In this document: positions 6 to 32,699 of the stretch, piece after piece
How the letters are laid out: every line of letters begins with the position of its first letter
Position numbering within the stretch: position 1 is the stretch's first letter
Virus record (IMG/VR): IMGVR_UViG_2832442593_000001
Coordinates: 51,845-88,019 of that record
Origin: a virus
Taxonomy: Duplodnaviria; Heunggongvirae; Uroviricota; Caudoviricetes
Direction: 5' to 3' (one strand)
DNA: 36,175 nt
Made by a program: the position numbers and the translations under genes
The notes under the pieces: generated by a model
The model's database searches: none
The model's input: the letters and a program-made list of their open reading frames with translations, nothing else
Told to the model about the DNA's origin: nothing

Positions 6-3000
6 TTATTTTTTGATTTTGAGAACTTCGATAATGTCGTTGACCATGCGGCGGGATACAGCTTCATGCTGCTTAACCGTATCTCCGTCCGCACCTTTGA
101 TGATTGTGTCGCCGAAGGTAACGTTCGTGACGTTCTCACGCGGGATCGTGACAACTTCACGGTTTACGCCGGAAACAGGCATCTGAGCGGCCTTGGACAG
201 GTCGGGCAGGGCAGAAGCGGACAAACCGCTGGTAATGGCGGACATTACCTTGAGAATGGAGTCGAGCGACTGCTGTTTGGGCTTGTCGAGCACGATTTCG
301 CCCTTTTGCAGAATCGCCATCATCTCGTCTTGACGCAGGGTAGAGGCATCGCCGACAACGCCGCCGGTGTGGTATATACCGAGGTACTTATCATAGATGT
401 TATTGCCATACTTGTCATACCAAACACCAGTGTGACCATCATAGTGAACACCGAGATCGTACTGGCTGTTGAGTTGACCAGCATAGTCGGCATTCTTTTG
501 GTTGAGCGCTTTCTTCTGCTCCACCGTCATGTTGGCAGACCAAGTATCACTGTTCTTCTTCATCTTCGCCACGATTCGAGCGATCCCAGCCGCATCTGCA
601 TCCCCAGTGCCGTATTTATTCGAATCGCCAATGATATTGGAGTTGGAACCGTTGGAAGAAGAATTGGAACCGTTTTCACCAAGACGATCATAGACTTCGA
701 GGTAAGTAGCATTGTACTTCTCCATAGCCTTTTGGGCGTCTTGCCATGCTTGCGTAACCTTGGCATTGATGTCCGAACCCGCACGAGTGTTATATTCAAT
801 TAAATCATCGTAAAGTGTTGCCCAACCATCTTGTATTCTCTTTCGAGCCATTTGGTAAAGTTTTTCCTCCGATGAAATTGAATCCTGCAGTTTCTTAATC
901 TCGGCGTCCTTTTCCTTCTCGTAAGCCTCCTGCATCTTATCAAGATTATCGGTCTGACGGTCATAGGCTTCATTTGCCTGCGTCTCGCCAAGTTCTTTTT
1001 GGAGATCGGCGAGTTGTTCTTCAAGGTCTTTACGCTTTGCGATTGACTCGCGGCTGTCATCCAGAGACAGAGCGTTAATCTTCTCTTGGAGCTTTGCCAT
1101 TTCCTTGACCTTGTCGGCTACCTCGTCCTGATAGTCGGCTTCGTCCTTGCTCAGTTGCAGGCTTTCCTTCTTCTTATCGATGATCTCGCTATACTTATCC
1201 TTCAGCTCTTCCAGAGCGTCAACCTGCTGGTCGATTTCGTCTCGAATCATATCCTCGACGTACTTGAACAGAGCGTCAACGCTATCCTTGGTGTCATCGA
1301 AGTCGATTCCGACGCCGGCTTTTACGTTAGCCAGAACGCTGCGGTATGCATCTACATTCTTAACTGCCTGCTCGTAGCCTTCCTTAGTGAGGTCAAGCAT
1401 AGCGAGTTGCGCGTACACAGAACTCCACTGAACCTCAGTCAGGTCGGCCGTTGCGTTCAGCAGATTATTTAGAGAAACAACGTCGTTCTCCTGCAGAGCC
1501 ATGCGCAGACGCTCCACATAAGCGGAGGCGCTTTCCAAAGCCATCTGATCAGTCTTAGCTTTGATAACGCGGTTGATGGCTTCCTCGTTGATGGTCAGAA
1601 GACCATTCTCGTCTTTGAGGTATCCCATGTATTCGACGCCAAGTTTGGAGATTTCTTGGAAGGTATCGACGGAGATGAAACCACCATTTGTCGAGTATTC
1701 CTCGGCGGCCTTCTTGAACGTGTCGAGAACGTCCTGAATCGTATCAACAGAGTCGCTTGCCGCATCAACGATATCAGAGAGATAGTCGATGACTTTCTGC
1801 TTAACATCCTTAACAGCGTCTTCGTACTCCCACCACTGGTCGGAGAGATCGGCCACTTCGTCACTGAGATCGGAATATCCCATGCCGCGGTAATACTGCG
1901 CTTCCTTGTGCAGGTTCTTCTGAGCTTCGCGATAATGGTCAATGATGCCGTTGAGCGTGGACTCAATTGCATCGCCATCGATAGACGAGAAGATAGTATC
2001 GACCGTCTTGGTTTCGAAACTGTCTGCAACGCCGCTGAAGATGCCGGCCAGAGGGTTGCCCTTCTTGGCGACACCGTTCAGAATATTCTGCGACAGCTTT
2101 GCCGAATTGAAAATCTTACGCTGAGCACGAGTGAAAGAGCGCTCGAGCTTATCAGTATCGAGCAGGCGGTCAAGGCTTCGCTCGGCCAGTTTGATAGCAT
2201 TTTCATGTTCCGACGTGATCTTGTCGTACATGTCCTTCATCGTGTCGATGATGCTGTCATGCGCTTCCCACCATGTCTTTTGCTGTGACCTCACATACTC
2301 TGATGAATCCTTTTGGCCTTGGGCGCGAAATCTATCGGCGGCCTTCTTGGCTTCGTCTTGAATCTGCTTATAATATGCAACAATCTGCATCGGGTCGCCA
2401 CGCTGCTTTTCGACGAGGTAGATCTTATGCTCAAGCTGATCGATGATGTCCTCGACTTCTTCTTTGATTTTGTCAAGAGCTTCCTTCGCTGCGTCCTCGA
2501 GTTTAGAAGTATCAGCGGTTACCTTAACCTTCTGAGTCTTGGTTTTCGCGGATGAAGGGCCTTTCCAGTTATAATACTTACCGCCAGTTCCATAATCCAG
2601 ATTTGATAGCGCACCGGATGAAGATGCTCCATTATACGATTGTTTGAGACCACCGCGGATAAGACCAGCAGTAATGTTCGCAGGAACGATAGCATCACCG
2701 CGTTTGGTATCGATGACCTCCATGCCATGTTTGCCGACAATTTTGCTGTGTTTGCCATCGCGAGAAATCCACTGCTCAGGGCCAAGCTCACCAACAAGGG
2801 TTTTGCCGCCGACGGATTGACCACCGGAAGCCATGCCGGTCATAGTCCCGGTGAATCCGGTGTAACCGCCAGTGTATTTGTTTTTACCGGGGCCTGAGCT
2901 ACCAGTCGTTGTTGTCTCGTATGTTTTTTTATTAACGGTAATGGTAACAGTCTTGCTTCTGACACTATTCATCAACCCAGCCAAGCTGCTAACATTGGAA

Positions 3001-6000
3001 ATAGCCGCAGAAGTATTTACATTGACTACACGCTGTTTGTTGATAGCTGAGTCTAATGCTTTTCCCATTTCCTGAGCGGCCGGAGTAACAGGATCATTAG
3101 GAGTATCAACATTTGCCGAAACTTGCACGCCTACCTGTTTCGAACCATTAAGCAGCGACTGAGTTTCTTGATCAGCGTTAGTGGAAGCATTTACTGTAAC
3201 TGGAATACTCGGGGATAAAGTTCCGTTAATTATTGTCTGCGCGGGCGAATCCATATGAGTAGTCGCGTTTATTGAGACCGATTGACTATTGTCTACTAAT
3301 TTCTGTCCCGCCAAAAACTTCTGGGCGTTTTCATCCATATGCGTCACTACATTGATGTCAACTTCCGGATCGATTATTCCTGCTTCTTGAAGATCTTGAA
3401 GATTCTGTTTGGCTTGATCAAGTTGTGTCGTATCTGTTTTGAATACAATTGGTTTTGGCTGATATTCAGGACCAATCGGCTCACTATACTTTACTCCACC
3501 TGATTTGTCTGATGTGTCCGTAGTTCCTGTACGATAAGATCCGTCTGCAAATGATTTACATTTTTCGATAAGAGCATCAATTTTTGCCTCGGCCTCTGTC
3601 GTGTCGATGTTGAGATTGTACTTATGCTCGAACACTTCCGTCAGGTCGTCCATCATCCGCTGTGTTGTGTCTTCTTCGGTAATAGGAGCCTCACCGTTAA
3701 TAGTAAACTTATACGGGTCACCGTTTTCGCGAGTCTTGGTATTAAGCAGATTCAGCATGGTCGGCAAATCGCCTTCACTGATATTCAACCCAGACAATTC
3801 TTTTACTTTATCAACAAAAGCAGATACATTCTTGATATCAATAGACTGCGTACCATCGGACAGTTTCTCAACAGTAACAACACTTTCACCTATGCCAGAA
3901 AAGAATTTTTCGACATTCGCGGTCGAAAAATCTTTCCCCATTGCCGCGTTAAGCGCATTATACGAGTCAGTCAGTCGCTCGATGTCGTTGTACGTCATCT
4001 GAGTCGGATCAATGCCCGTATTTTTCGTTGCTGCTTCAAGCGCTTGTTTTTCAGCAACCGTCAAAGAATCCCATGCGGCTTTCGATGCTCGAAGAGAAGG
4101 TTCAATGTTCTTGCCGGCATCTATAGTTGCCTGATTCAGCTGATCTACGGTGTCCGAGACCGTGGAAATATTTGTTTCTGTTGGGTTGGAGTACGAGTCA
4201 ACCAGATCAAAGAACTGCTGCAGCGACGCGGTAGACATACCGAACGCGCGAGCGAGGTCAACAACATCGTTCGCCGCGACAGAAATACTGCCGTTCTTCC
4301 AATCTACCTGCATCATGCCGTCAACAAGAGCCTTCTGGTCTTTGCTGAGTGCGTTATATTTCTTGTGAAGTGTATTGAATCCGCCGGTCAGATCTTGTCC
4401 GACTTTATCTTCATCTTTACCGGTGAGGAAGAAACCTTGGTTTTCACTAATCCACTTTTTGGCTTCTTTGAGATCTACGACCTTACCAATGAGCAGCTCC
4501 ATCTGAGCACGAGCAGTATCGGTATTGATCTGCCCTTTTTTGACAGACTTTGCAAACTCATCGTAAATGCTGACCATATTTTCGTGGGTCTCAACATTGT
4601 CCGTTGATTTCTCAAGAGCAGTTTTATAGTCGGTGAGATCTTGCGCTACCGTTCTTACAGCTCCGGATTGAGCCTGTAACTTCTTGTTGAATTCATCTAA
4701 GAACTCTCCAAGGTGCCCAGCTTGATCAATCGCTTGCAGTTTACCAAGGTATTCCGAGACATTATCTCCACTGGTAGCGATAATCTTGTCAAATGTGCTA
4801 ATCTGGTCGCCGGTGAGATTGTCAAGGTTGAAGTCCTGCGCGGTCATGGTCATGGCTGCGAGAGCCTTTATTGCGTCTTCACTGCCACTCTGAATAGCGT
4901 TGAAGAATTCTCCGGTAGAATATCCGTTCGTTTTGCAGAAGTCCTGAATTGCGGAGGAAATTTGAGCAAGGGCACCGTCCGACCCAGCGAAATGCATGAT
5001 ATCTGCAGTACGTTCTGCGGTAGCGCCGATGTCAGCTATAATACCATATTGTGCTTTGTCTAATTTCAAGATATTGTCTGCCAATTCGCCCGGCATTGAA
5101 GCGGCTCTGCCTACGATGCCATTGATATAGCTATTTACCTCATCAGAACTCAGCGGAGTCAATGTACCATTAGCGTCCAGTAGGGGAGTGAATGCAATCG
5201 GTATTTTGTCTTTACCGAATTCACCCCACGAGCCAAGTACGGTAGAAACAGAACCGTCCATATCCTTGACGAAATTCTGCCAGTATTTCCCCATCGCTTT
5301 AGTGTCGTTTTCCCATTTTTTCTTTTCCTTTTCAGGAGCCCAGCTTAAAAACTCACTTTTATACTTCTCAAGATTTTCTTTCGTCCACTGAATGGACGAA
5401 CGATCATTCAGATCTAGATTGCCAAAAGTAGCCTTGTTAAGTTCCTCTGAAGTAACGCCCAATTTGGACATCTCTTTGTGAAGATCGACCCAGTTTTGAT
5501 AAAGACCTACAATTTCTTCCATCTTTCCGGGATCAGTAATCTTAACATCAGACAAATTATCTGTGATGGTCGCCTTCAGATCATCTGTTTGTTTCTGGAG
5601 ATCCTCGAGTCCGAACATCTTGCGGAAGTCAATGGCGTCTAGTTCTTCTTTTGATAATTCACTTCTCAAAGCTCCCTTGAGTGACAACATCGCTTTCTGA
5701 GCTTTTTCCTGATATTCAGAAACAGTCATGCTACCGCGATTTTCAATTAGGTCGGCGTAGTCTTCCATCGACTTTTTAGCATTATCATTATACTTCGCGA
5801 CCTTCATCATTGCTTCGGCATAATCAGTTGCAGCATTTTCAACACCGGCTGCATTAAGTTTAGATGCGTCGAGACTGTTGGCAAACGTAGAAAGGAATTG
5901 CTGTTGCTCGGGCGTCATGTCATAATACTTTTCGTTCGCCTGAAAAGCCGTATCTATCATCTGAGATACAGTATCTGTGGTGGATTCAATAGTGTCACCG

Positions 6001-7809
6001 GCTACATTCCATCCTTGAGCCACATTATTAGCTTCGGCGGCCAACTCGTTTGACAAAAGTCCGGCGTCACTTAATTGCGCCACAATAACCGCTAAGTTTT
6101 CTTTGATAGCGGCAGCGTTGGATTCAAAATATTCTTTTCTCCAGCCGGTAGAACTGAATCGTCCAGCAATACCTAACGAGCCTTTTATTTCGCCCTCTTT
6201 TACAAAATCATCATATGATTCGCCGGTAGCCTTTTGGATGATAGACATTACCTTGTTGGCATTTTTATCACTTTTATCTTTAGCGGCGGAGTAAATTTTA
6301 GTAAATAGATTTGCGGCTTTCTTATCTACTTCTTTCTCTCCGGCACGAGCGTTCTTATATTCTTCCCGGAACGCTACATACGCCGTTTGAGCGTTGTTGA
6401 GCCCGCCATCGTTGTCTGATGTTCCACCATATACGGTACTCTTCGCTTCCTCGACACGCTGTTGTTTCAGTAGCTCGATAGTTCGCTCAATCGAGTTGTT
6501 TTTGTCGATGATAGCCTGATTTTCATTGTTATATCCTTGCACCAAAGCAGGATTGATAGCAACCAGCTGTGAAACGATATCGTTATATTCTTGAAACTGT
6601 TCGGTGGATAGACTGATGTTTTCGCCACTGCTGGATACGCCCTTTGCCAGTTCTTCGAACCTGTCGCGCAGCCCCTCTACAGAGGATATATTTTCTTCGA
6701 TAGCTTTAGAACTTGAAGTGTAATTCTCTAAATTTTTACTGGTTACTTCCACAGCTTCTGCGCCGGTCATAAATGATTTGTCGATTGTTGCAATGGTACC
6801 TTCGATCAGTTTCGACACTGCCCAGATTGCTGCCATCGACACGGCCATGCTTGCAATAGCAGACCCGATTCCCTTAAAAGTTGATGTAATCTTGGCTCCA
6901 AGCGTTCCTATTTTTTCTTGCTTTGCAGTAAAGTTATCGATTTGTCCGCTAACAACATCCCATTCATTCCCGACGGTATCAAGGGATTTAGCGAACTCAC
7001 GGCTTTGAATAGCTGCGCCAGAAAGAGCTTTTTCAAAATCAGCACCTCTAAGTTTTTGCTTCATCTGAGCGTAGCTTTTCAGAATTTCATTTTGTTCCTG
7101 CCAATAGTCGTGGTTTTTGGTGTTATAATTTTTAAGCGAACTGAATAACCCGCTCCCACCAAAGATGGTTTCTCCGTATTCTCCTTTCCCGCCGATAACG
7201 CCTTTTCCGTTTATTGACAGAAGCAGGGAAGCAACAGGAGCGAGAAGCCCCGGAAGGATGCCAAGTTTATCAATCAGAGTGTTGAAGAACCCGAGAATGC
7301 CAGAACCAGCGTCGATAGTTCCTTTCACAAGACCAGAATCAAGAACACTCGTGCTTGCGGCCTGGAATTGCGCTTGGAACTGCGCAAGTTTACCTTGAAT
7401 AGAATCAAGATATTTTGCATTCTCAGCATCGGCTGAGCCAGTTGCGTTTTTAGTTGACTCGATGACGTCCTCAACGGTCGACCAGTTCTGGATGAGCGCA
7501 GCAGTTGTATTAGCTAATCTCTTGCCAGAAATGGTTTTGAGCAAAGCGGCTTGATCTATGTCGCTAAGACTGTCATAAACACCTGCAATTTCACGCATAA
7601 TTTGCGTGGTGCTCTTAAATTGCGTTCCAGCCTCGTCAGACATAATGTCCACTTTGTCGTGAGTTAAAGTTTTGATGGTTTTGCGAAGCTCACTTACAGA
7701 GTTTGCCATACCATCCGTTTCGATTCCGGCCTCTTCAGCATCAGCTTTAGCGGCACGGAGGTACATACTAAGGGTTTTAGCCCATGTTCCTACTGTATCA
7801 GGATCTTGT
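6..7809 (-). CDS. Tape measure protein, exon 4 (spliced gene: join 11473-9798, 9520-9498, 9155-9050, 7809-6; 9609 nt, 3202 aa)
   Basis: The 2586 aa ORF stays in frame upstream to A|CAA GAT CCT GAT ACA GTA GGA ACA TGG GCT AAA ACC CTT AGT ATG (QDPDTVGTWAKTLSMYLR). It is Ala/Glu/Lys-rich and helical/coiled-coil-like, with TMP-type C-terminal motifs (ASGG..VGELGPE, YHTGG..GEIVL). It lies downstream of the tail genes. Confidence 0.93.
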
Positions 7810-9049
7810 CGTTTCTGTTACTTGTTAGCGCTGATATACCGCTAATCTGACCGCAAAAGCGGCGGCAAGGTCTTTCGGCCTTACTCTCACGTTTCATTTC
7901 ATTATTGCGTGAGTCCGGACTGTATATTACACCCTTCCCGAAGGAGTGGGGTGGATCACTTCAGTGACAATGTTACCATTGTCACCCCGCAGTCTCTACG
8001 GATAAATGCAATGAATCTTTCAATATTTCTTCGATATTATGATATTGATAATACCAAATTTCAATGAGATTGATATGCTTTAGAGTAGCATACTCTCTCT
8101 TGCGTCGATCATGTTCTTGCTGAACAATAAACAATTCCGCATTACTCAAGCGAGCAGTTCCATCGTGAAATTCGCCCTGATATTCTATCAATGCATTATG
8201 CGACGGAATAAAGAAATCATATGACAATGATCTGCCTTTAACTCCAACAAGACCGCTAAATCGTTTCTGTTCTGTGAAATCAATGTGATTTTGTTGTAGA
8301 AAATTGGATATTTTCTTTTCGCCTTTGCTACGGTTACAGTATGGACAGAACTGCCGTTGTGCATTAGAATAAGACATTCTCTGAATGCCTTTATCTTTAT
8401 GATGATAGCAAATATATTTAAGCGGAGTATTTCCGTTAATATACGGCTGCTCTATCAAGAACATATCATGTGCATTAAATGTAGCTTTTACTTCTTGATA
8501 AGGGGTTCTTCTCTTTTCTGACGCTCTTTCTTGTCCGCAAAACGGACAGCCATAACCACTTTTAAGATTGTTATATGTGATAAACTGAGATCCCTGTTCT
8601 TGATGCTTAGGGCAAATGTATTCATATTTCTCTTTTGCTTTCAATTTCTTGTTTGTAATTAAGAAATAGTCTCTGGCATCAAACGCTGTTTTAATATCAT
8701 CAAAAGATGGCCCTTGTAATTCATCAAAACAATTCTTGCTACAGCAGATATGCTTCCGTTTACCGCTGTTCAACTGGTTTATTTTCGTAGATGACACTAA
8801 GAACTGTTTCCCACAATTATCACAAGAATACAAACATGGAGCGCCTGTAGCCGCGCGACGACAAGCTGCAGAACAGAATTTCGAATTTGGACGATCTTTT
8901 CGCCCGCGATACTCTTTCCCGCAATATTGACATATTTTCATTTTTATCTCTTTTCATTGCAAATTTTCCTCGGTCTCTGCTGTCTCCAGCCTTTGACCGA
9001 TATAGTGATCTACTTGCGAACGTATTACTACGCCGCGTGGCAAAGATCT
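7810..9049 (-). mobile_element. Group I intron 3 of the tape measure gene (1240 nt), carrying an endonuclease ORF
   Basis: Exon end GUGGU pairs with GCCAC in the intron (P1 with the U.G pair). R-like CCGTAGAGACTG and S-like AATATACAGTCC give P7 GACTG/CAGTC. The intron ends in G (…AGAAACG). Removal restores AANEVVQDPD. Confidence 0.92.
7982..8941 (-). CDS. Intron-encoded putative homing endonuclease (zinc-finger repeats plus a C-terminal DUF559/Vsr-like PD-(D/E)xK-type nuclease)
   Basis: 319 aa, AT-rich. Two CxxC…CSxxC motifs, two CxxH…CPxC motifs, and a C-terminal YDFFIP…LIEYQGEFHDG…HDRRKREYA…LIEIWY. The ORF runs into the intron R/P7 element. Confidence 0.82.
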   Translation of the reverse strand: MKICQYCGKEYRGRKDRPNSKFCSAACRRAATGAPCLYSCDNCGKQFLVSSTKINQLNSGKRKHICCSKNCFDELQGPSFDDIKTAFDARDYFLITNKKLKAKEKYEYICPKHQEQGSQFITYNNLKSGYGCPFCGQERASEKRRTPYQEVKATFNAHDMFLIEQPYINGNTPLKYICYHHKDKGIQRMSYSNAQRQFCPYCNRSKGEKKISNFLQQNHIDFTEQKRFSGLVGVKGRSLSYDFFIPSHNALIEYQGEFHDGTARLSNAELFIVQQEHDRRKREYATLKHINLIEIWYYQYHNIEEILKDSLHLSVETAG

Positions 9050-9155
9050 ACCACTTCGTTTGCTGCTGTTACGAGGCCCAAGCTCTCATCGAGAGAGTTG
9101 CCGCCTGCGTTCAGAGCCGCTGCTGATCTTTTGAGGGCTTCGCCAAGCCCTTCTG
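9050..9155 (-). CDS. Tape measure protein, exon 3 (106 nt)
   Basis: Reads (S)EGLGEALKRSAAALNAGGNSLDESLGLVTAANEV(V), the conserved TP901-type TMP repeat core. It is missing from the ORF track. Confidence 0.9.
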
Positions 9156-9497
9156 CGTACCTTTAGCGCGGGTCGTTACTCCGCACCGACATAAAGTCCT
9201 CCGTCTTTCAACGGAGCCGAGATCATATCTTCACCCCATAGGGTGCCTACCACTTTCAGAGCACTCGCCCCTACTTTGATCGTTGAACCTTCCTCTGTTC
9301 GAGGCTTGGCTGCTGATTATCCATTGTCACGGCGTTTAGGGTTTAACCTTGCGCCATCTCTCATTTTTTTTCTGCTTTCGCCGCATTCACGTTTGCGCCT
9401 GTTCGGCACTGCGTTGTAGCATGAGAGCTTTAGGACGTCCCAGCAATTCAATAGGTGATTTTGCGAACACATTTCTGTGAACGAAGTCCAATGATTA
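9156..9497 (-). mobile_element. Group I intron 2 of the tape measure gene (342 nt, no ORF)
   Basis: P1 AAGUU/GACUU. P motif AATTGCTGGGA, Q motif AATCAGCAG, R motif GTTCAACGATCA, S motif AAGATATGATCT (P7 GATCA/TGATC). Terminal G at 9156. Removal restores NYAISSEGLGEAL. Confidence 0.92.
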
Positions 9498-9520
9498 AAC
9501 TTATCGCGTAGTTGTTTCCG
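9498..9520 (-). CDS. Tape measure protein, exon 2 (23 nt micro-exon)
   Basis: C GGA AAC AAC TAC GCG ATA AGT T encodes (V)GNNYAIS(S) and bridges introns 1 and 2 in frame. Confidence 0.88.
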
Positions 9521-9797
9521 CTGTTTGTTACTTTTTTCCTTAAAAACGAAAAGAACAGGTCATTTCTGCCTGTTTCTGCAATTTCATTATTCGATTATAT
9601 TTGCAGACCCGACTATATCTTCACCTCCAAAAAAGGAGGGGATGGCATGACTCTGCACGTTACCGTGCAAAATCGGTTAGTCTGTACGGATTCTTGTGGT
9701 CAAACACAAGTCTTTCCTCGGTATTGCCCATCTCTGGGTGTTCACCGATATAGCCATCTTTTACGCTGCACATCGCTGTGCAGGGAGGCCGGTCAAA
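9521..9797 (-). mobile_element. Group I intron 1 of the tape measure gene (277 nt, no ORF)
   Basis: P1 GAGGU/GCCUC. P3 ATGGC/GCCAT. P4 TATCGGTG/AATACCGAG. R-like CCGTACAGACTA and S motif AAGATATAGTCG. Ends …AACAAACAG. Removal restores DRFNEVGNNYA. Confidence 0.92.
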
Positions 9798-11473
9798 ACC
9801 TCATTGAAACGGTCTACGACGCTTCCAACATCATCAGCAGCAAGATGGAAGCCCTGCAGAGTAGAAACAAGCGACTGTGCCGCGTCCTCAATGTTCGTGT
9901 ATTCCGACACGTTCATATATTTGGTCGCCCAGTCGCCAAGATTGGAGGCATCCTCCAAATTAAATCCGAGTCGGCTAAACTCAGATGTTGCTCCAATTAC
10001 ATCCGTAATCGAAGCGCCGAGGCTCTTCGCGCGTTCACCAGCGCTGTCAAGATAATTAGCGTAATCCTGACTTGAGCCTTCCGAAACCTTTTTCAGGTCG
10101 GTCATCGCCGTGTCAACGTCGATAACATTCTGGAGCGTCTGCTGTAAGCCGTTCTGCAATAAGTGCAGTCCTGCCATCGCAATAGCCGTGTTAAAGTGAT
10201 CCTTGAACAGACGAGTCAGCTTCTGCCCGACAGTTTCAGACGTAAACCCGAGTTCTTCCATACTGGAGCGAACTGCCGCGAGGTCTCTTTGAAGTCCCTC
10301 AACGCTGTCACCTTCGCCCGGGTTTCTCGCACGGCTCATAATGTTCTGCAGTTCGCCTTGAAAATAAGAACCCGCCGCTTTTGGGTTATTTTTAAGTGTT
10401 TCGCTGGCCTGCCGATAAATGTTCGCCAAATGTTCCTGCGATCTCTGAGAACGAACGGTCGCAGTTTGCTTAGCATTAAACAAATCCGCCTGTGCGCTCG
10501 CATCAGCCCACGCGGAACGGAGTCCATTCAGGCCCTGCTCCAGCTCATAAGTACCGGCCGCCGCATTCTGGAAAACAGATTTTGCATTCTCGAATGCCGT
10601 CCAGTCATAATTCTGTAGCGTCCCTTTATCTTTTAGAGCCTGAAGCTGCGTTATATATTTCTGGCCGGATGCCAAAACATTATCAGTAACCGACTGAGAG
10701 TTCTGTCTGGACACTGTAGTCCACATCTTCTTGATGCTTTTCTCAAGCGCATACTTCTCTGGCGTAAAATCCGCCATGCTCTTGTACTGTTTGAGCATCT
10801 TATCAAGGCTTGCTACATTCTCCTCACCAAAAAGGTTGCCCTGCTTGAGCTTTCCAAACTTAGAGCGAATCTGCTGAACATCCAACATAGATCGCTCGGC
10901 CTTTTCTGCAGCCTTCAAATTGTTGCGAGAGAACGCAATATTGGTCGCTTGCTGTGCCTCTTTCAGCGCGTTAACGCTTTCTACAGTTCCCTTGGTCGTT
11001 GACTCAAACTTCTTCATCGCAGTTTCAGCCGCCGAGATTGCCTTTGAGTCGATAGGACTCGCCATGTTCTTCAGATACGACATCGTCTGTCTCAAGCCGG
11101 TCGCCTGACGCTCCATTGTGCGCAACTGCCGTTCCACAGCCTTTTCTGCATCTGTTTTACCCGATGTAGAGCTTTTAGACGAGCTGCTCTTCGTGGTAGA
11201 AGAGCGAGTTGAAGCCGCAGAAGACTTAGCTTTGCCGGAGCTGTTTGTTCCAGTTCCGGCCGCCGATATAGCCTTTTTAATCTGAGCAGTGATATTTGCA
11301 GTATCAACCTTGATCGTAATCGGCGTTTTTGTAGCCGCGTCAATCGCATTCTTGATGTTCTGCGTCAACTCAGCAGAGTTGACATTGATAGGGAAGTCTT
11401 TGTAATTTTTAAGCGCAGTTTCCAACTGATCGCACTTGGGGATAAGTTCGACAGTAACGCCTAAATCAGCCAT
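9798..11473 (-). CDS. Tape measure protein, exon 1
   Basis: Helical N-terminus, then TP901-type TMP core (DVDTAMTDLKKVS…IGATSEFSRLGF…DRFNEV). RBS AAGGAAGG upstream of the ATG at 11473. Confidence 0.92.
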
Positions 11474-11493
11474 AAATTCACCTTCCTTATAGC

Positions 11494-11518
11494 AAAAAAG
11501 CCGCGGAAAGGCGCGGCT
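11494..11518 (-). terminator. Rho-independent terminator-like hairpin between phoH and the tape measure gene
   Basis: AGCCGCG-CCTTTC-CGCGGCT followed by a T run on the minus strand. Confidence 0.65.
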
Positions 11519-11524
11519 GTTAAA

Positions 11525-17145: not shown

Positions 17146-17238
17146 TGGCAGAGATGGTTGGATTCGAACCAACGAGCGAGAGCGTTACCTCTCTTGGCGG
17201 AGTCAAATTCCGCTGCCTTACCGCTTGGCCACACCTCT
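17146..17238 (-). tRNA. tRNA-Gln (UUG) with an atypical 23 nt variable region
   Basis: 93 nt: AGAGGTG/CATCTCT, D arm GCCAAGCGGTAAGGC, anticodon arm GCGGA-ATTTGAC-TCCGC, V arm GAGAG-GTAACG-CTCTC, T arm GTTGG-TTCGAAT-CCAAC, G73, encoded CCA. Confidence 0.88.
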
Positions 17239-32052: not shown

Positions 32053-32391
32053 CTGTTGTGTTAATCCCGGTCGCTACTCGGGATGGGCAGTTGCCCCTCA
32101 CGGTTTCCCGTGAGCACAGACTATATCTTCACCTCCACGGAGGGAGGGGACACCACAGGCCGCGGCTTCGCGGCGCTTAGTCGTTGAACCTTGCCCCTGT
32201 CGGGGCCTTGGATGCTGATTGCCAATTATAAGCGCTTAGGATTTAACCATACGCCATCCGAACCATTTTTTCTGCTTTCGCCGCATTCACGTTCACGGTT
32301 TCCCGCCGCGTTGTAGCTGATTCGGCTTTACGGTATTCCAGCAATTCAATGCCATTCACTCGCACATCACTGTACGAGAGGACTCTTTCGA
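32053..32391 (-). mobile_element. Group I intron 2 of the RNA polymerase gene (339 nt, no ORF)
   Basis: P motif AATTGCTGGAA, Q motif AATCAGCATCC, R motif GTTCAACGACTA, S motif AAGATATAGTCT. Exon ends in U, intron ends …ACAACAG. Removal restores MSGIEIDKAKK. Confidence 0.93.
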
Positions 32392-32699
32392 ATCTCAATA
32401 CCCGACATGACGTCCAGCATAGACGTATCATAGTAAATCTCAGCCACATCCTCAAAAGCCGCGCCGCTGTTGAGCTTATCCCAAAGCAGGCTGTTAAGCT
32501 CCTGAGAGAGGTTGATAATCTCGCCGATCATGTTTTCGCTGGTTTTGATATCAAGGTCGGTTTGCTGTGCGCTCGTGTAGGAACGCTTGGTTTTCTTGGA
32601 TTCCACCAGAGAGGTGGGTACTTTGAAAAGATGGTAGTTTTTCTCGGCTGCCCGAATGAGCAGCTCGTTGTCTGTGAGCATCATAGTGTCTGAGTCGAA
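32392..32699 (-). CDS. yonO: YonO-like RNA polymerase, exon 2
   Basis: FDSDTMMLTDN…IGEIINLSQELNS…LDVMSGIE(I). 308 nt. Confidence 0.9.

Follow-up and report, generated by a model that had tools for sequence, protein, structure and literature searches.

The window analyzed here is a 36,175-nucleotide (nt) stretch of the 152-kb IMG/VR record IMGVR_UViG_2832442593_000001, which is classed as a provirus. Its minus strand carries two long open reading frames (ORFs), one of 570 amino acids (aa) at 11473..9761 and one of 2586 aa at 7766..6, with about 2 kb of DNA between them. An earlier note on this DNA had proposed that both frames belong to a single gene for a tape measure protein (TMP), broken up by self-splicing elements. 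Our analysis leads to the same structure, and we consider it very probable that a single TMP gene has the two ORFs as its outermost exons, is interrupted by three independent group I introns and is spliced to give a 3202-aa protein. Comparison with 40+ related loci, drawn from IMG/VR and metagenomes and referred to below by L numbers, sets this gene within a family of gut phages whose tape measure genes differ in the number and position of their introns.

Structure of the split tape measure gene

Joining the four exons listed in Table 1 yields 9609 nt, or 3202 codons plus a stop, and translation of the joined exons proceeds without a single internal stop. The stretches removed measure 277, 342 and 1240 nt and enclose no more than 129 nt of coding sequence; each of them is preceded by a U and closes with a G. 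The boundaries were defined by blastn against an uninterrupted reference allele, L012:3001-12570, from a human gut metagenome. Query positions 1-197 run up to window position 9798, positions 198-220 fall on 9520..9498, positions 221-326 fall on 9155..9050, and the alignment resumes from 7808 with position 328 onward, position 327 being a mismatch at window position 7809. No further interruptions are evident across the whole 9.6 kb. Because the breakpoints in the L012 DNA coincide exactly with the boundaries proposed in the earlier note, including its intron lengths, its 23-nt micro-exon and the 129 nt enclosed, we accept the gene structure to the base.

The protein tells the same story. The earlier note had suggested alignment with intron-less homologues as a check, and the reconstructed protein aligns with ten uninterrupted homologues (2945-3202 aa) without a gap at any of the three junctions, for which the predicted junction peptides are …NEVGNNYAISSEGLGEALK… and …AANEVVQDPDTVGTWAK…. 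Micro-exon 2 completes a Val codon with its first nt, encodes the residues GNNYAIS, and opens the following Ser codon with its last nt; 21 of its 23 nt are identical to the matching stretch of the uninterrupted gene, and the residues it encodes align with the homologues. The gapless alignment to these ten proteins, together with the Rfam E-values of introns 1 and 2 given below, excludes chance. An intein, translational bypass and an assembly artefact were each considered and rejected: the spacers hold stops in all frames, they include ribozyme matches, and the same layout is found in many independent assemblies.

Table 1. Exons, introns and the intron-borne frame of the tape measure gene, in window coordinates
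Feature	Coordinates	Strand	Details
TMP exon 1	11473..9798	-	1676 nt; ends GAC CGT TTC AAT GAG GT; boundary from blastn to L012
Intron 1, group I	9797..9521	-	277 nt, without ORF; P1 GAGGU/GCCUC; terminal G
Micro-exon 2	9520..9498	-	23 nt, CGGAAACAACTACGCGATAAGTT
Intron 2, group I	9497..9156	-	342 nt, without ORF; P1 AAGUU/GACUU; terminal G
Exon 3	9155..9050	-	106 nt; sequence ...EGLGEALKRSAAALNAGGNSLDESLGLVTAANEV.; 94% identity to uninterrupted gene (blastn)
Intron 3, group I (hand-drawn core model)	9049..7810	-	1240 nt; P1 GUGGU/GCCAC; terminal G; core split by P6-loop ORF
Predicted homing endonuclease ORF of intron 3	8941..7982	-	319 aa
TMP exon 4	7809..6	-	7804 nt including stop; begins A CAA GAT CCT =.QDP

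Profile searches identify the interrupted product as a tape measure protein. Exon 1 alone reaches 26.9 bits against PF10145, below the cut-off of 33.2, and covers profile positions 3-85 of 201 only; the uninterrupted homologue P0016 reaches 72.2 bits over the complete profile, through its residues 481-697. The family phrog_4211 (tail length tape measure protein) spans the break, its positions 569-720 matching exon 1 (E 9e-29) and its positions 766-1416 matching exon 4 (E 2e-67), while the gap of 45 positions left between these matches corresponds to the 43 aa of micro-exon 2 plus exon 3. Among the tblastn matches, Brevibacillus phage Sundance (42% identity), Tsamsa-like Bacillus phages and some others have the homologous region annotated as TMP. 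When the start of exon 4 serves as the query, the databases return many homologues of 3185-3202 aa with PF10145, and many shorter ones (~2575-2593, 2487-2505 and 2074-2092 aa) without it; among the 120 nearest database proteins, about 100 are fragments of this kind, which arise when gene callers split the TMP. At the DNA level, megablast of the region against GenBank phages gave a single 58-nt match, to Enterocloster phage CB457P1, and a scan of genome contigs with the exon 1 peptide gave 62 pattern matches, none of them confirmed.

Intron cores and the predicted endonuclease frame

Introns 1 and 2 are identified as group I introns by their matches to the Rfam covariance model RF00028, for which the gathering score is 50 bits. 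Intron 2 scores 69.2 bits (E 1e-15 over the whole window, 7e-17 in a 2.5-kb scan); its P5 region is enlarged by a long insert, and another 43 nt follow the end of the Rfam match. Intron 1 scores 32.7 bits in the 2.5-kb scan, which is significant (E 5.9e-6) but below the gathering score. Independent support comes from the guide helix P1, which co-varies with the exon: in intron 1, GAGGU/GCCUC becomes GAGAU/GUCUC in L039 and L040, and in intron 2, AAGUU/GACUU becomes UAGUU/GACUA in L025 and L041. Intron 1 is absent from uninterrupted alleles exactly at the insertion point, is 93% identical between lineages whose exon is 73% identical, and has 5' and 3' parts similar to those of intron 3b, an intron of related phages described below. 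The window holds another group I intron outside the TMP gene, at 32097-32401 on the minus strand (RF00028, 56.6 bits); intron 2 is 74% identical to it over 176 nt, and the two have the long P5-region insert in common.

Since RF00028 gives no match for intron 3, neither in the window nor with a natural ORF-less copy scanned alone, its helices were drawn by hand. Pairs were then counted in a MAFFT alignment of intron 3 with its paralogue 3b (27 distinct copies in all), from which the ORF loops had been removed. For P3 of intron 3, the window has GAUCAC/GUGAUC where ORF-less copies have GAUUGG/CCAAUC, so that three pairs are altered on both sides. Between introns 3 and 3b, compensatory changes number two in P1, four in P2, three in P5, and one each in P9 and P9.2, with few or no non-canonical cells; the 3b alignment is out of register in P3, P6, P7.1 and P8, and counts in those helices understate pairing. 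P7 (GACUG/CAGUC) is invariant across copies, and a hairpin with a GUAA cap persists between P7 and P3' although its stem sequences are unrelated. An extra helix in this position is typical of subgroup IA introns. Within this model, a group I core running from P1 to P9 is supported by the compensatory changes. Intron 3 also exists in compact form: an ORF-less version of 281-284 nt occupies the same site in 20 related loci, and pig and mouse gut DNA contigs skip window positions 8004-8971. These ORF-less forms have 10 nt where the window copy has 966 nt.

The 319-aa ORF occupies the P6 loop of intron 3, in place of the short loop, and we read it as a predicted Vsr-like PD-(D/E)xK homing endonuclease with zinc-ribbon DNA-binding repeats. 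In PHROG, it matches phrog_559 (E 1e-41), phrog_9084 ('homing endonuclease', E 3e-23) and phrog_7140 ('intron encoded nuclease', E 2e-10), the matching families being annotated as HNH, homing or intron-encoded nucleases; nothing significant emerged from Pfam, NCBIfam, or sequence and profile searches of the PDB. More than 800 homologues were found. Residues D242, E253, Q255, H259, D278 and K281 are invariant. An AlphaFold (AF2) model built from 25 homologues has a predicted local distance difference test (pLDDT) value of 90. In Foldseek, the top matches of its C-terminal domain were Vsr (1cw0), at E 5e-3 and a TM-score to target of 0.52, and I-Bth0305I (3r3p), at E 6e-2 and a TM-score to target of 0.69, each with probability 1.00. 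The N-terminal part is made up of zinc-ribbon repeats, and homologues have PF05265, PF14311 and PF21817.

The likeness to I-Bth0305I (3R3P) lies in a predicted C-terminal fold that Foldseek pairs with it, at probability 1.00 but with a weak E-value, and in the position of the ORF within the loop of a group I intron. Identity to Vsr and I-Bth0305I is just 12-15%, with the motif E-Y-Q-G-E-x-H-D in the present protein, and the N-terminal zinc-ribbon repeats are a difference from I-Bth0305I. A role in homing, through cleavage of intron-less alleles close to the insertion point, would fit the place of the ORF in the P6 loop of a mobile intron, the coexistence of ORF-less and ORF-bearing forms, and the PHROG annotations, all of which bear on it indirectly.

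The earlier note's identification of three group I introns is thus upheld by evidence of three kinds, namely an RF00028 match above the gathering score for intron 2, a sub-threshold match for intron 1, and a covarying core for intron 3. The P1 pairings and the terminal G that it gave are present in all three. The covariance-model search that it recommended had a mixed outcome, finding introns 1 and 2, the former below threshold, and failing with intron 3.

Insertion sites across related gut phages

The three introns of the window represent half of a larger set of positions. Across the family, introns are inserted at six sites, after nt 1676, 1699, 1805, 1827, ~2066 and 2091 of the uninterrupted coding sequence; these sites, designated 1, 2, 3, 3b, 4a and 4b, span 416 nt and all lie within PF10145, which is the best-conserved part of the gene. 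Individual genomes carry from 0 to 6 introns (Table 2), with micro-exons of 22-25 nt, and the six-intron alleles have micro-exons of 23, 22 and 25 nt. When the predicted introns are removed, the frame is restored at every junction in 29 of the 31 intron-bearing loci, including those with six introns; the exceptions are L032, a 3-kb contig fragment, and L039, where the locus is cut soon after the insertion. Sites are filled or empty independently of one another in different genomes, and in the sampled loci intron 2 was never seen without an intron at site 1.

Table 2. Number of introns in the tape measure gene of the window and related loci
Introns	Loci
None	L012-14, L016, L021, L033
One	L015, L027, L029, L036, L039
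Two	L009, L020 (contig cut), L030, L032, L037, L038
Three	window, L040
Four	L005, L018, L025, L026, L028
Five	L002-4, L019, L023, L024, L041
Six	L001, L006, L007, L017, L022, L031

By sequence, introns 1, 3 and 3b form one family, intron 2 and the window intron at ~32.1-32.4 kb another, and introns 4a and 4b (71% identical) a third; introns 1 and 3 have no direct blastn similarity. These groupings suggest that neighbouring sites hold retargeted paralogues, with 22 nt separating site 3 from 3b and 25 nt separating 4a from 4b. Introns 1, 3 and 4a are far more conserved than the gene around them, keeping 93-97% identity between lineages in which the adjacent exon has fallen to 73-75%, a disparity that indicates recent horizontal spread. 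We are inclined to think that the PF10145 core of this gut-phage TMP family is a breeding ground for group I introns, in which duplication and guide retargeting carry copies to sites a few codons away, and that the window allele is one state among those so produced. If true, six sites in 416 nt and up to six introns per gene would be among the densest packing described for phage genes.

Further elements of the family are absent from the window. Intron 3b (L001:8656-9514; ORF 8808-9326) carries a P6-loop ORF of 153-223 aa instead of an endonuclease, encoding a signal peptide and a lipobox-like Cys, and its sole family match is phrog_3727, which is functionally unannotated. Variants of this ORF are ~25% identical to one another, and the surrounding 3' ribozyme arm is ~85% identical. 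The ORF may be a cargo gene, for example for an exclusion lipoprotein, with the intron acting as a vehicle for a host-interaction or exclusion gene. Elsewhere, L029:1-7775 and L032:1-3145 contain a different element, of 1.7-1.9 kb, at or within 2 nt of site 1, with zinc-ribbon-rich ORFs of 113 + 368 aa or 423 aa. It is unrelated to intron 1 and has ~80% identity over 64 nt to intron 2; with boundaries that are approximate, this looks like a case of different introns at the same site 1.

Two other observations concern the downstream sites. Intron 4a (L001:9754-10159) follows C rather than U (…CAGGC/A…, the slash marking the splice site; guide GCCUG), such that in its P1 a C-G pair would stand where the 5' splice site of group I introns near-universally has U.G. 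It gave no match to RF00028, though intron 4b, with which it shares 71% identity, reaches 61 bits. In the cultured Enterocloster phage CB457P1 (L044, OP172753.1), residues homologous to TMP positions 450-707 and 702-807 are encoded ~1.1 kb apart within 7038-9235, with a 157-aa ORF between them and a break near site 4b; the pieces are annotated as separate hypothetical proteins. The CB457P1 spacer has no match to RF00028, and it ends …GTTGTAACAG, like the 3' ends of introns 1, 3 and 3b.

As for the phage itself, the evidence points to a temperate, SPbeta-like phage of gut Clostridia. Neighbouring genes in relatives are YomN, ClpP, PhoH and DUF6558. In the window, a PhoH-like gene ends 51 nt before the TMP start (interval 11474-11524), and in L012 an extra 195-aa gene of unassigned family (L012:2084-3000) lies between the PhoH-like gene and the TMP gene. 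A 90-nt tRNA with a long variable arm is found at window 17149-17238 on the minus strand (RF00005, 53 bits); in relatives, a tRNA with a long variable arm adjoins a second tRNA, upstream of the tail module.

Proposed splicing, alternatives and precedents

On the structure set out above, a late transcript would lose all three introns through self-splicing by the group I route to give the 3202-aa TMP. Guanosine would attack after the U of the P1 U.G pair, and the 5' exon would then attack after the terminal G. Micro-exon 2 would play two parts, as the 3' exon for intron 1 and as the P1 strand for intron 2. In an unspliced transcript, translation stops 12 codons into intron 1. A look-up of RNA sequencing runs containing window 7600-10000 turned up none, a look-up of runs of any kind over 9000-10900 likewise showed none of RNA, and a run labelled metatranscriptomic gave an unrelated contig with two short matches. 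Any skipping of the 23-nt or the 106-nt exon alone would shift the frame, and joining exon 1 directly to exon 4 would drop 129 nt, or 43 codons, in frame. Intron 3 is probably actively mobile through its predicted endonuclease. Introns 1 and 2, which lie 106-129 nt upstream of it, most likely owe their persistence and spread to co-conversion with endonuclease-driven events close by, or else to ORF-bearing relatives acting in trans.

Several observations weigh against this account. The window is a single sequence from a record classed as a provirus and could be a decaying copy; intron 1 falls short of the Rfam gathering score (32.7 versus 50 bits); intron 3 is undetected by RF00028, its assignment resting on a hand-drawn helix model and on pair counts from an alignment that is partly out of register; and the Foldseek E-values of the nuclease domain are weak (5e-3 to 6e-2) despite the probability of 1.00. 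The provirus classification and the behaviour of introns 1 and 3 toward RF00028 would also fit a dead TMP gene in a defective phage, whose introns are real but of which one or all no longer splice. We find this improbable, as 9.6 kb of exon sequence has stayed free of stops and frameshifts, and the three-intron layout or larger sets, with frames intact, recur in many independent contigs, some from wastewater and others from the gut of humans, pigs and mice. Moreover, P1 guides track exon changes and ribozyme helices keep pairing via compensatory changes, both of which argue for continued selection for splicing. The database might also seem to favour separate genes, or a naturally split TMP produced as two chains, with an endonuclease gene standing on its own in 2 kb of intergenic DNA, for the many entries of ~2575-2593 aa begin right after intron 3 and lack PF10145. 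Yet what is missing between the two ORFs is precisely what the 23-nt and 106-nt pieces encode, uninterrupted alleles exist whose identity to exon 4 over its first 450 residues is 88-92%, and the group I covariance model recognizes two of the three spacers. The gapless homologue alignment and the exact blastn breakpoints refute such a structure, and we give it virtually no credence.

Another alternative concerns the manner of splicing. The introns might splice only with a phage or host protein cofactor or through cooperation between ribozymes, while some transcripts skip exons and give a slightly shorter TMP. The two internal exons add up to a multiple of three (23 + 106 = 129 = 43 x 3), and two reports document skipping in Twort orf142, in engineered tandem introns (PMC10136302) and in a Bastillevirinae polymerase gene (PMC11878797). 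In Twort, however, skipping is ascribed to two highly similar flanking introns that form a hybrid ribozyme (PMC10136302), whereas introns 1 and 2 here belong to different families and introns 1 and 3 do not align directly in blastn. The 43 residues at stake, furthermore, lie in the conserved PF10145 core and are retained in all homologues. We therefore judge a need for such help, or skipping of this kind, to be unlikely.

The arrangement has clear precedents. The tail tube gene orf142 of Staphylococcus phage Twort, reported by Landthaler & Shub in 1999, combines three group I introns with a 23-nt exon and is subject to exon skipping, as described in PMC10136302 and PMC11878797. Both it and the window gene are phage tail structural genes with three close group I introns of phage IA type, and with a 23-nt exon between two of them. 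The differences are that orf142 encodes the tail tube and the window gene the tape measure protein; that Twort introns 2 and 3 are highly similar, whereas the window introns flanking the micro-exon are not close paralogues; that splicing and skipping were shown experimentally in Twort, whereas the window gene is read from sequence alone; and that relatives of the window phage reach six introns and orf142 three. The same sources extend exon skipping to tandem introns in engineered constructs (PMC10136302) and to the Bastillevirinae polymerase gene, where it affects 47% of transcripts (PMC11878797).

Tape measure genes, too, were already known to be interrupted. According to a 2008 report by Tourasse and Kolsto, lambdaBa01-like prophages of the B. 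cereus group contain the TMP group I introns TMP-IVS1, IVS2 and IVS3a/b at three sites (PMC2504315). The likeness extends to IA1/IA2 introns at several, patchily occupied sites in the TMP gene of a Firmicutes prophage, to paralogues at neighbouring sites (IVS1 and IVS2) that are retargeted via P1, and to the scarcity of complete endonuclease genes, which most copies lack. The strains detailed there have one or two introns per gene across the three sites, and the section consulted mentions no micro-exon (PMC2504315), whereas the window has three introns within 129 nt and its family six sites in 416 nt.

More broadly, capsid and tail genes of cluster J mycobacteriophages contain introns that are spliced (PMC3706429), and gut 'Jug' jumbo phages average 18.5 introns per genome, with metatranscriptome reads backing the splicing of 37 of 76 predicted introns (PMC12880540). 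The Jug phages resemble the present family in being gut phages with many group I introns in essential genes; they differ in genome size (360-402 kb), in host (Bacteroides/Phocaeicola) and in the genes interrupted, which are terL, nrdD and DNA polymerase rather than TMP. A recent survey places most split phage genes in nucleotide and DNA metabolism (PMC11878797). Our literature search turned up nothing published on this family of gut phages, nor on a TMP domain with six insertion sites.

In light of the TMP introns at three sites reported in 2008 (PMC2504315) and of Twort orf142, known since 1999 (PMC10136302, PMC11878797), the earlier note overstated its case in calling a triple cluster in a tape measure gene unusual. 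The window is a dense example of a known phenomenon, and the family-level pattern is the more interesting part. One consequence is practical: gene callers split the TMP and lose its only recognizable domain, so that the tail genes of a widespread gut-phage group are mis-annotated and tail-length estimates based on TMP size would be wrong. The family also constitutes a natural allele series, with zero to six introns at six sites a few codons apart, retargeted paralogues, and both ORF-less and ORF-bearing forms. As such, it is suited to asking by what means group I introns reach new sites, what maintains ORF-less introns close to others that encode an endonuclease, and what allows several ribozymes to fold and splice accurately at exons of 22-25 nt without skipping them; CB457P1 could provide a bench system for such studies. 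Together with the published cases, this gut-phage family adds to the evidence that tape measure genes are a recurrent target of introns.

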